Of a DNA stretch of 64,000 nt, positions 21,621 to 24,776 are shown in pieces (within the stretch, counting starts at the first letter, position 1; every line of letters begins with the position of its first letter). Below the pieces are notes generated by a model. It was not told where the DNA came from. It searched no databases and worked only from the letters and a program-made list of their open reading frames with translations. The translations under genes were made by a program, and so were the position numbers. The DNA lies in the IMG/VR virus record IMGVR_UViG_3300005288_000003, positions 33,841 through 97,840 of that record. One strand, given 5' to 3'. Source of the stretch: a virus.

Positions 21621-21648
21621 ATTCTACACGACATTTGCACAATGTCAA
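21621..21648 (-). promoter_or_regulatory. sigma70 promoter inside the tRNA array
   Basis: TTGACA-N16-TAGAAT with AT-rich upstream element. Confidence 0.75.
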
Positions 21649-21662
21649 GCGTTTATTTAAAA

Positions 21663-22113
21663 TTATTTTAGATTGTGATCAAATTCCCAATGGCAGTTCG
21701 GACAAAGAAGCATCAGGTTACTGCGGGCATTGATCACACTCAGCATCGTATCGTCAGGGAAGTCAGCCACTGCTCTGATATGTGCAACCTCTACGTGCTT
21801 ATCATATCCACACTTTTGACATAAAAACAGGCTCAGCAGCTACAGAGGCTCTTGCTCGACTGCGAACTAAAGCATAGGCGGAAGACCTATGATGTTTCTC
21901 GTAGATAGCTTCTGCAAGCGTCATATCCTTCACGATGTGAGCACTATGTTCATCACAGACAGTTCTTCGACCGCTTACAGGGATTGAACATACTTTACAC
22001 GCTCTTTGTACTCTGGCTCTCTTCGGCGTCTTGTTCGTCACTGTTGTGGCACAAGTCCTACTGCAATATTTTCTATTCTTTGTGGGCGTTCCACAATTTC
22101 CGCAATCGATCAT
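21663..22113 (-). pseudogene. HNH endonuclease split by a +1 frameshift
   Basis: Removing one T from GTTTTTA (~21822-21828) restores LCQKCGYDKHVEVAHI...NLMLLCPNCHWEFDHNLK. Confidence 0.75.
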
Positions 22114-22126
22114 GATGCTCCTTATT

Positions 22127-22201
22127 TGGTAGACCTGCTTGGGATCAAACCAAGACTAACTCTTTAGAAGAGAGTTGTGCGATTCACTACACTACAAGTC
22201 C
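22127..22201 (-). tRNA. tRNA-Arg(TCT)
   Basis: ACTCT-CT-TCT-AA-AGAGT; T-loop TTTGATC. Confidence 0.85.
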
Positions 22202-22223
22202 AGAAGGCTCCTGCACATCCACT

Positions 22224-22346
22224 GTACCAATCCAGCATGCTGCTATCACAATCAAGACCCTTAATTCGAGGACGACATTTATAGCACGCAGTCGTCTGTG
22301 CGTCAACACCCTGAGTTGGTTTCAGAGTCATACCAAGGCGCGGTAC
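22224..22346 (-). ncRNA. Pseudoknot-containing structured RNA
   Basis: ACGCA/TGCGT + GACGAC/GTCGTC; TTGGT/ACCAA + ACTCTGA/TCAGGGT; GTACC/GGTAC closing. Confidence 0.5.
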
Positions 22347-23137: not shown

Positions 23138-23455
23138 TCAACCATGTAGTTGGAAAATTGTTGCTGATGGTGCTTCACCGTTGCCGACATCTTCACCCTC
23201 GCCACGAGCGATAGCCTTCAAAGCCTTGTCAGCCTTCAATAGAGCTACATACATGTTGGCGATGTCCTGTGCCATTTTGAATTGCTTCTCTGGCGTCAGG
23301 TTGTCTGCGGTTGCTGCTTCGACCATACGATTCAGAGCAGGGCCAAAGGCGCGCTTGAGGATTCGTAGGCCACCATCTAGTTCTGAGCGTTCTGCTGACT
23401 TCGCTAGAGCTTCCTCTCGCGTCGGTCTGCCACCCTTGTTTGGTGTTGTTGACAT
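23138..23455 (-). CDS. Hypothetical protein, possible terminase small subunit
   Basis: N-terminal KGGRPT, helical, same strand upstream of terL; function is a guess. Confidence 0.45.
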   Translation of the reverse strand: MSTTPNKGGRPTREEALAKSAERSELDGGLRILKRAFGPALNRMVEAATADNLTPEKQFKMAQDIANMYVALLKADKALKAIARGEGEDVGNGEAPSATIFQLHG

Positions 23456-23568
23456 ATGTCATCGTTCCTTCAAATAGGTGTGATCCGTGGAATTACTCGG
23501 TGAAAGGAGGAGAACACCAAAACCCGGATCACATAAACTGTAGAGACATTATCTGTCTGTATGTGATG

Positions 23569-23597
23569 ATTGTAACATCAGTTCTTGCACCTGTCAA
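23569..23597 (-). promoter_or_regulatory. sigma70 promoter
   Basis: TTGACA-N17-TACAAT. Confidence 0.75.
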
Positions 23598-23618
23598 TAG
23601 CACAGAAGAAATATAATG

Positions 23619-23819
23619 TCAATAATCTGTTGTTGATGATTTCATGGCTGTCACACCATCGATGGGATACCGCCCGCCTACATACTCTCTTTCAGGTGCG
23701 GAATGCTTGCTCATAAATTGGCATGCAAAACACAAATCTTCTTCTTGTTTTGTATCTGGATTATATCGAGGGATTTCATGTTTTGTTAGCGCGTTATTAC
23801 ATGCTCTGCATCGGGACAT
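23619..23819 (-). CDS. Small zinc-finger protein
   Basis: CRAC...LCFAC; AAGGA RBS. Confidence 0.65.
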   Translation of the reverse strand: MSRCRACNNALTKHEIPRYNPDTKQEEDLCFACQFMSKHSAPEREYVGGRYPIDGVTAMKSSTTDY

Positions 23820-23901
23820 GGATTGGTTCCTTCTATTGGTTTGTTATTTCACATAGTCTCCTTCTATATTTCATATGATGATGGATTGTATGTGGATGGG
23901 T

Positions 23902-23929
23902 TAAGTGGTTGATTTATAAGATGTTGATC
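23902..23929 (-). promoter_or_regulatory. Two tandem IHF-like sites
   Basis: AATCAA-CCAC-TTA (matches WATCAAN4TTR) and GATCAA-CATC-TTA. Confidence 0.4.
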
Positions 23930-23950
23930 TTATGGGGATAGATTCTTAAC

Positions 23951-24224
23951 GGAAGGTAGACTCAGCCCAAGGGATCGCCATACACAAAAGTGCCTAAGAC
24001 GAAACCTTGGTCTACCTTCCACAAGTTCTCATGAGGATGAGTTCTTGAACGGCCTGTATGGACAGGAGACAGCGTTTGCTGTCAGGTTCTGGTCATTCCC
24101 TCCGAAGAGGTCAGCTCCACGCTATAACCAGATGAGACTCAGCTTGCCCGTGTGGAATCCTCTTCATGGGCTACATCGTTGGCCGGTGAGTGATGCTTTC
24201 GCAGACATATCTCTCCAACGACAT
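23951..24224 (-). ncRNA. Large multi-hairpin ncRNA or leader
   Basis: Seven consecutive stems, including cTTCGg and GAAA tetraloops, right after a consensus promoter. Confidence 0.6.
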
Positions 24225-24229
24225 TCACG

Positions 24230-24258
24230 ACTATAACCGACAAGCGGCTTAATGTCAA
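24230..24258 (-). promoter_or_regulatory. sigma70 promoter (leftward)
   Basis: TTGACA-N17-TATAGT. Confidence 0.8.
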
Positions 24259-24281
24259 GCAATATATCTCATTCCAGTGTA

Positions 24282-24310
24282 TTGACAACTCAGATAGGCA
24301 GTGTTACTAT
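24282..24310 (+). promoter_or_regulatory. sigma70 promoter (rightward)
   Basis: TTGACA-N17-TACTAT. Confidence 0.75.
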
Positions 24311-24341
24311 CGAGCTTCAATTCACAGAAAGGAGAACTACA

Positions 24342-24776
24342 ATGACAGAATTCGTTGATGTAGTAGAAGTCAATCCGATAGTGTTTGTCAACAAAATTGT
24401 TGAACAGATTGCGAAAGGCTTCTACGTGCAGAACACAATCGCTGGATACCCGCTGGTTGGCCTGCCTTACCAAATCCGGCTCTTCGAGACTGACGAACCA
24501 GAAGTCCGCAACAAACTGGACAGCGAGGTTCACACAGTCGTCGTTGAAGGCTACGACATCATGCGTTGGTTGCTCGACGTGCAAGACGTGGCCCTGCAAG
24601 GATTCGTTATGTCGCTCACAGGAGCCTCTGTAGACAACTACAAGAGCGTTACGATGTCCAAGCCTGCACCCGTCAAGTTCGACCTCGGAATCGTCGCAGA
24701 GAAGCCTGTAGAAGCTCCAGCAGCTAAACCGAAACGTACAACCAAATCTAAACCAACTCAAGGAGAAACAGAATGA
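24342..24776 (+). CDS. Hypothetical protein
   Basis: Start MTEFVD after AAGGAG. Confidence 0.75.
   Translation: MTEFVDVVEVNPIVFVNKIVEQIAKGFYVQNTIAGYPLVGLPYQIRLFETDEPEVRNKLDSEVHTVVVEGYDIMRWLLDVQDVALQGFVMSLTGASVDNYKSVTMSKPAPVKFDLGIVAEKPVEAPAAKPKRTTKSKPTQGETE

Follow-up and report, generated by a model that had tools for sequence, protein, structure and literature searches.

What does a phage keep in a stretch of some 400 nucleotides that separates two diverging operons and appears to hold no gene? We asked this of a Pseudomonas phage whose genome of 97,840 bp has direct terminal repeats. The window, by which we mean the whole stretch of DNA that was analysed, is 64,000 nucleotides long and covers bases 33841-97840 of that genome; positions below are those of the window unless the genome or another contig is named. 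The nearest sequenced relatives of this phage are ventosus, UAVern, and Bitten, and more distant ones fall in Otagovirus (PE09, phiPsa374), Flaumdravirus (KIL1), and Pakpunavirus (PaP1, PAK_P4, K5, K8). PAK_P1/PaP1-like Pakpunaviruses and Otagoviruses are studied as therapy and biocontrol agents. The transcriptome papers and sequence records for PAK_P3 and PAK_P4 list promoters, antisense RNAs, and other small RNAs, with no dedicated regulator and no RNA at this locus, where the PAK_P4 record gives a promoter alone.

A gene-free gap between divergent operons

A preliminary description made from the sequence alone had placed a change in gene orientation at this site and had seen no credible open reading frame in the roughly 400 nt next to it. 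Both statements hold. Leftward genes and a tRNA array meet rightward genes at ~24250-24340, where the coding strand switches, with the following arrangement:

23019-19363, minus strand: array of 18 tRNAs, ~3.7 kb, largely untranslated
23619-23819, minus strand: first gene of the leftward operon (66 aa, CxxC motifs), ATG at 23819, synteny kept in relatives
24258-24230, minus strand: sigma-70-type promoter TTGACA-N17-TATAGT, matching 11/12 consensus positions
24282-24310, plus strand: divergent promoter-like site TTGACA-N17-TACTAT of the rightward operon, found by promoter scan
24342, plus strand: ATG of the first gene of the rightward operon

The leftward operon runs from the 66-aa gene through a 105-aa gene into the tRNA array. 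In all relatives examined the same order is found: tRNAs, a gene of ~105 aa, a gene of ~65 aa, a gap of 400-470 nt, and then rightward genes that include PhoH and ClpP. Between the ATG codons at 23819 and 24342 there are only open reading frames of 30-63 aa, none of them supported, and relatives differ within the gap through indels of 1, 4, and 6 nt and through compensatory base pairs, the pattern of non-coding sequence. A Pfam search of the genes flanking the gap returned nothing informative and left the 66-aa gene without a family. Its product, whose position is conserved in relatives, starts MSRCRACNN and carries a second CxxC, and it may be a small zinc-ribbon protein.

We also noted further promoter-like sites on the leftward side. 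One, an 11/12 match with an extended -10 TG, lies at 23569-23597 on the minus strand, just past the stop of the 66-aa gene (23619) and before the 105-aa gene; more 11/12 sites occur in the tRNA region at 21648 and 18980. From these matches, the leftward unit may have several transcription entry points.

The gap specifies a conserved structured RNA on the minus strand

The leftward TTGACA-N17-TATAGT reported in the preliminary description is present as listed above. Its -35 TTGAC is unvaried in 11 homologous phages, and in the PAK_P4 record the corresponding position is annotated as a putative promoter. We infer that the RNA begins near 24223, 2-3 nt ahead of the first helix, P1; the promoter adjoins P1 in both copies of the element (see below) and in all relatives examined. 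From this point a multi-helix RNA extends over ~24223-23951, and a repeat element carries it to 23928, giving a length of about 275-310 nt. The elements of this fold, all on the minus strand, are these:

24224-24088: 5' domain, made up of P1, P1a, P2, P3, and P3b, supported by covariation
24221-24215 with 24182-24176: P1, supported by covariation
within the 5' domain: P1a, GAG/CUC, with the invariant strands GGAGAGAUAUGUC and CACUCACCGG
24171-24168 with 24149-24146: P2, GCCC/GGGC, supported by covariation
24156-24152 with 24120-24116: pseudoknot PK1, P2-loop UCCAC with GUGGA of the P3 internal loop
24132-24125 with 24095-24088: P3, supported by covariation
within the 5' domain: P3b, CCUC-UUCG-GAGG with a UUCG loop, supported by covariation
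24087-24084: linker J3/4, ACCU (with P4 and P5, region 24087-24053)
24082-24069: P4, a variable hairpin that covaries
24066-24053: P5, a variable hairpin that covaries
24047-24022: P6, CAAG..CUCAU/AUGAG..CUUG, carrying repeat R1; its lower stem covaries
24046-24027: repeat R1, AAGAACUCAUCCUCAUGAGA, inside P6 and matching R2
24020-23951: P7, a long hairpin with the 11-bp helix GGAAGGUAGAC/GUCUACCUUCC; four sub-helices covary
23947-23928: repeat R2, AAGAAUCUAUCCCCAUAAGA, a direct repeat of R1, 99 nt downstream

All eight stems named in the preliminary description are present in this fold and are supported by covariation (P1-P7 and P3b). Alignments of 11, 26, and 36 homologues agree on one consensus fold; the base pairs that change on both sides number 30 of 59, 39 of 55, and 43 of 55, respectively. 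Covariation had been proposed as a check on the RNA, and with 36 sequences it is clear: 96.1% of cells are paired compared to 72.6% in shuffles, the covariation score is 0.57 as against 0.16, none of 500 shuffles reached the observed values, and slid controls gave 0.05-0.10. Covariation in P6 was counted apart from that in the other helices. The 5' domain is the best-conserved part and is common to distant members, and within P7 the internal strands GUCUUAGGC, GUAUGGC, and CCUUGGG are invariant.

Folding of a single sequence cannot tell which strand is the RNA, because the opposite strand folds as well as the RNA strand does (z -3.2 to -3.6). The details of the fold argue for the minus strand: GNRA and UUCG loops (GAAA, GCAA, GUAA, UUCG) occur on this strand only, and reading the plus strand would turn four near-invariant G-U pairs into A-C mismatches. 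Together, these comparisons indicate that a genuine RNA, conserved and structured, is encoded in the gap.

A pseudoknot and a candidate competing helix

The 5' domain is closed by the pseudoknot PK1, in which UCCAC, the 3' part of the P2 loop, pairs with GUGGA in the internal loop of P3. Its strands can pair over 5-6 bp in 26 of 26 sequences, with eight helix types among them. As an independent check, we looked at 14 metagenomic members that had not been used to propose PK1; a simple search found a matching helix in 11 of them, adding at least four helix types (e.g., GCCGUU/AACGGC and CCAGCC/GGCUGG). Further PK1 helix types were read directly in distant members.

A second long-range pairing would link the 5' domain to the 3' module. 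The ACCU of J3/4 (24087-24084) is complementary to AGGU in the 5' strand of P7 (24017-24014), and the two are paired in 93% of cases. One J3/4 position switches between C and U together with both strands of P7 (G/A in the 5' strand, C/U in the 3' strand), in a ratio of 13:12 and in several lineages. The helix is just 4 bp long and rests mainly on this one covarying pair; we treat it as a candidate alternative helix, the three-way covariation being the signature of competing helices. A base triple as the source of this correlation was rejected, as the register is that of an antiparallel Watson-Crick helix and not of a parallel pyrimidine triplex. Truncated folds of distant members gave no conserved alternative (antiterminator) helix.

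Repeats that flank P7

In every member examined, R1 and R2 flank P7 as direct repeats, spaced 93-110 bp apart. They share a core of 5-13 nt in every member examined, of at least 8 nt in all except the copy in the window, and the core varies between members and even between two copies in one genome. We found no full complement of R1/R2 on the RNA strand within 1.5 kb at each locus or in the source genome. A 5-mer column scan for a partner returned only invariant strands that match the conserved arms, and none that follow the variable cores.

Could the repeats be operators, and the region a DNA-level control element or a chance fold? Such a reading takes R1 and R2 as operator-like direct repeats ~100 bp apart, and their spacing of about ten helical turns would suit it, as would the dyad arms CTCA/TGAG that each repeat carries in the Pseudomonas-phage group. 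The dyad is, however, absent in distant members, the cores differ between the two copies of a single genome, and RNA-type compensatory change runs across the whole region. We therefore regard control at the DNA level, or a fortuitous fold, as improbable in the extreme.

Two further observations concern these repeats. The motif ACUCA, complementary to the invariant P2-P3 linker CUGAGU, occurs in R1 in one subgroup (including the window) and in R2 in the other, and distant members have ACUCAG between P7 and R2; pairing with the linker is a possible long-range contact. In addition, an IMG/VR member (L029:8257-8605, minus strand) contains an extra, third repeat unit of the R type, GAAACUCAUACGAGAUAG, immediately behind R1. 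The core of this unit is similar to that in the PE09 lineage, which hints that repeat units have been exchanged between phages.

An uncatalogued family with two copies per genome

The preliminary description had called this RNA undescribed, and our searches agree. With Rfam 15 there is no non-tRNA match at the gathering score anywhere in the window, and at a permissive E-value the interval 23400-24500 yields only four snoRNA/osmY matches (E 0.45-4.7) that are at chance level and far below the gathering score. The literature on Pakpunavirus non-coding RNA, on RNA antiterminators, and on surveys of phage structured RNAs gave no description of it. By BLAST, the core (23937-24220) is found in 183 phage records, where it is annotated as nothing or as small hypothetical coding sequences and never as an RNA feature.

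The source genome holds a second, diverged, full-length copy. This copy, A, lies outside the window at genome positions 21982-22316 on the minus strand (also at L065:5982-6317) and was recovered first by profile HMM and subsequently by covariance model (E 1e-62); the copy in the window is referred to as copy B (genome 57742-58072). BLAST of the phage against its own genome with word sizes 7-11 returned only self matches and missed copy A. The promoter of copy A, TTGACA-N16-TAGAAT, is again an 11/12 match and stands at another divergent junction; a promoter of equal score sits back-to-back with it and points the opposite way. Searches of whole records with the model found exactly two copies in the source phage, KIL1, UAVern, Bitten, and Y1-MI, and PaP1, phiPsa374, and PAK_P4 also show two. 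In these two-copy phages, every copy is located where two promoters diverge and comes first in its transcription unit. The operon behind copy A in KIL1 and PAK_P4 extends to primase/helicase and lies opposite an RNA-ligase operon.

What follows the RNA differs between the copies. In copy A, R2 runs directly into the ribosome-binding site and AUG with no spacer and no AT-rich tract, and in 5 of 8 lineages (the source phage, UAVern, Bitten, Y1-MI, and KIL1) it overlaps the first gene's Shine-Dalgarno sequence and start codon. That first gene encodes a DUF4326 protein in the source phage. PaP1 and PAK_P4 carry a sigma-70-like promoter, TTGACA-N17-TAGAGT, directly after R2 of copy A and before the first gene.

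To reach more distant members, we used a 20-23-base motif from the invariant core, which retrieved 30 IMG/VR, 10 MAG, and 35 metagenome contigs. By covariance model, 34 of the 35 metagenome matches are members. The MAG matches are near the number expected by chance, with true members in a Marinobacter MAG and an Armatimonadetes MAG; the large open reading frames on these two contigs read as phage-like from their N-terminal motifs only. Distant members retain P1-P3, PK1, P4/P5, the R1-P7-R2 arrangement, and the invariant strands. Their P7 is a long A-tract/U-tract hairpin with a U-run, terminator-like on the RNA strand in all three that were tested (L052:6905-6922, L045:548-567, and L041:5577-5596) and, from its symmetry, possibly terminator-like on both strands. 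Here too the RNA precedes an operon, and on two contigs the first gene begins with a helicase-like motif, read by eye. The genes behind the RNA thus differ between members: tRNAs, DUF4326, the helicase-like first gene (by eye), and small ORFans.

The Nankokuvirus PAK_P3 (NC_022970) has no family member by BLAST, HMM, or covariance model, and its layout is without such junctions. We considered its sRNA1 as a homologue and rejected it, as none of the three methods gave a match and the genome layout is different. Otherwise alike in lifestyle and host, PAK_P3 is a natural comparison for the function of the RNA.

Taken together, the sequences define a well-supported, uncatalogued family of structured RNAs that sits as the leader of early operons.

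The sequence downstream of copy B and the proposed replication primer

Copy B is followed by a distinctive stretch in which the preliminary description had seen a G-poor, A/C-rich tract and two IHF-like sites. The elements between R2 and the 66-aa gene, on the minus strand, are these:

23928-23873: G-free, A/C-rich, unstructured tract, defined by composition
23863-23858: strong Shine-Dalgarno sequence AAGGAG, read from the sequence
23854-23849: start-stop AUG-UGA behind AAGGAG
23852-23844: two-codon open reading frame GUG-AAA-UAA behind AAGGAG, an alternative to AUG-UGA

The tract is as described, with zero G at 23873-23928 on the RNA strand. Over the 80 nt past R2, G makes up 9% compared to 27% in the RNA body, a composition common to most copy-B homologues; the tract is specific to copy B, and none lies behind copy A. 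The IHF-like sites fared less well. There is one exact WATCAANNNNTTR match to the IHF consensus, at 23902-23914 inside the G-free tract, and the whole 64-kb window has 3 such matches versus 2.35 expected by chance. Neither ventosus nor UAVern retains the site, the TTR half having been lost in the nearest relatives.

The divergence of gene orientation had led to the suggestion that the transcript primes replication at an R-loop origin, in which case it would hybridise to the AT-rich tract. The locus does have a strong promoter followed by such a tract, and it lies at a divergence point with a change in skew, although the skew change at 24000 tracks the coding-strand switch and does not discriminate between a leader and an origin. 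ColE1 RNA II owes its persistent RNA-DNA hybrids to G-rich stretches; the tract here has no G on the RNA strand, a composition that does not favour stable hybrids. Copy A is the same RNA without the tract, distant members lie in other contexts, the IHF matches are at chance level and not conserved, and selection acts at the level of the RNA fold, including its G-U pairs and pseudoknot. We consider a primer or origin function very unlikely, and this part of the preliminary description is not upheld.

The start-stop element behind AAGGAG (23844-23863) sits 25-30 nt ahead of the 66-aa gene. A two-codon open reading frame in this position (AUG/GUG NNN UAA) is kept in ventosus, UAVern, Bitten, PE09, phiPsa374, and IMG/VR relatives, and it recalls the bar minigenes of lambda and other start-stop elements.

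How the RNA may act

The other suggestion in the preliminary description, that of a large non-coding RNA or antitermination leader, fits what we find: a conserved structured RNA, absent from Rfam, located 5' of an early operon. Its fold, strand, family, place as a leader, and occurrence in two copies are established by computation, and from these we deduce a transcript, a gate, and a partner. Which of the two is it? Our judgement is about evenly divided for and against the reading we favour, in which the RNA is a cis-acting 5' leader that gates transcription or translation of the early operons. It draws on five features: the RNA is the first element of its operon, R2 lies at the ribosome-binding site in copy A, P7 is terminator-like in distant members, J3/4 and P7 offer a candidate competing helix, and the downstream genes are unrelated.

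According to this model, host sigma-70 RNA polymerase would start the leader ~3 nt before P1, and the first ~135 nt would fold during synthesis into a compact domain in which P1-P3 are locked by PK1. The near-invariant unpaired strands would most likely contact a conserved host component, such as the elongating polymerase, its factors, or a small ligand. Since the downstream genes differ between members, we infer that the partner is a general machine and not a metabolite tied to one pathway. As the output, the 3' module (P6 with R1, P7, and R2) would decide whether polymerase or the ribosome enters the operon. In copy A, R2 would provide the first gene with its ribosome-binding region. In copy B, R2 leads into the G-free tract, which could serve for Rho entry or as a standby site for ribosomes, and the gated unit would consist of two small genes and the largely untranslated tRNA array. 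Without translation, such an array would be open to Rho.

Terminator-like sites are not enriched downstream in the operons, and several additional internal promoter-like sites are found there, so that processive antitermination appears less necessary. P7 of copy B is without a U-run, and on the RNA strand in the window no terminator-like site follows it. The gating model leaves the identity of R1 and R2 unaccounted for, and a stable RNA released from a leader would look alike in sequence.

Indeed, the main rival is a stable, trans-acting RNA of ~275 nt, cut or terminated after P7, that would bind a host machine (polymerase, Hfq, RNase E, or the ribosome) or a defence system and divert it, its place at the head of the operon only ensuring early and strong synthesis. 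The size, the pseudoknot, and the invariant unpaired strands resemble those of stable functional RNAs, the terminator-like P7 of distant members would release such an RNA, and the adjacent tRNA array implies active RNA processing. The related phage PAK_P3 also makes abundant small RNAs derived from untranslated regions (PMC10914365). This proposal is harder to reconcile with copy A, where the element enters the ribosome-binding site without a spacer, and with the missing terminator after P7 in the window; in addition, two diverged copies, each with its own operon and copy-specific repeats, are more easily explained by action in cis. We see it as rather improbable, with perhaps a quarter of the weight.

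The leader reading includes, as a special case, a ligand-sensing riboswitch, with the 5' domain as aptamer for a metabolite or ion that reports the state of the host and P7/R2 as expression platform. Such an RNA would join a conserved domain with a pseudoknot to a variable platform, as is seen here, and the terminator-like P7 of distant members, the adjacency of R2 to the Shine-Dalgarno sequence in copy A, and the candidate J3/4-P7 helix could all belong to a switch. On the other hand, the downstream genes (tRNAs, DUF4326, helicase-like by eye, small ORFans) have no common theme, no Rfam riboswitch class matches, and ~135 nt plus a 170-nt platform is unusually large. We judge a riboswitch unlikely.

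Returning to the leader reading, its most far-reaching form would place these RNAs in a class of their own, that of large phage RNAs directly targeting the conserved expression machinery of the host, either as a pseudoknotted, put-like modifier of elongating polymerase or Rho or as a phage-only riboswitch, with the covarying repeats R1 and R2 taking part in a kind of switching or self-recognition for which known leaders offer no described precedent. We raise this tentatively, as a possibility with rather less than an even chance. For phages that time their early genes with the host polymerase alone, a conserved RNA of ~300 nt in front of both early operons readily suggests itself as a regulator, and it would also be a handle for engineering. 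RNA biology would gain a large and well-supported class of structured RNA carried by phages, one in which the repeat pair around the P7 hairpin has no ready explanation.

Comparison with known systems

Among promoter-driven structured transcripts upstream of an AT-rich stretch, ColE1 RNA II and the T4 origins oriF and oriG resemble the locus in layout; the tract in the window differs in being G-free in the RNA and is absent from copy A.

The small RNAs of PAK_P3 offer another comparison. RNA-seq and ONT-cappable-seq identified candidate non-coding RNAs derived from 5' untranslated regions, with sRNA1 and sRNA2 near tRNA genes (PMC4933390, PMC10914365). They share with the window RNA an origin in untranslated sequence, a related P. 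aeruginosa myovirus as source, and proximity to tRNA genes, whereas sRNA1 lies after three genes and not at a promoter.

Large RNA elements near the head of an operon are also known in bacteria and plasmids. conAn2 of conjugative plasmids and EAR of the Bacillus eps operons are cis-acting RNA antiterminators of 260-600 bp near the head of long operons; conAn2 belongs to Gram-positive plasmids, is poorly conserved in sequence, and needs the ConAn1 protein for long-range action (PMC8191782). The window RNA is like them in size and placement but has another context and other partners than conAn2 and EAR, and it differs from conAn2 in its neighbours, which show no informative Pfam family and among which no ConAn1-like gene was identified.

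Riboswitch and attenuator leaders such as the T-box, Mg2+, and cobalamin leaders likewise have a conserved, tertiary-folded 5' domain and a variable 3' part, which in our family is a terminator-like hairpin (distant members) or a ribosome-binding site (copy A). In contrast to these leaders, the window RNA belongs to no Rfam class and has no apparent ligand or gene theme, and copy B shows no canonical terminator/antiterminator pair.

Through contact with the zinc-binding domain of the polymerase beta' subunit, the put RNA of phage HK022 keeps the enzyme from pausing and terminating. Its two forms, putL and putR, are the closest analogy to the window family, a sequence-related pair of RNAs of ~70 nt with two stem-loops, one behind each early phage promoter; they are transcribed by host polymerase and act as folded nascent RNA with no dedicated protein needed (PMC9378689). 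The window RNA differs in its length of 275-310 nt, its at least eight helices, its pseudoknot and flanking repeats, the absence of any sequence likeness, and the operons behind it, which are not rich in terminators. What the two systems have in common is their arrangement, as the window family also comes as two paralogous copies, each behind an 11/12 early promoter.
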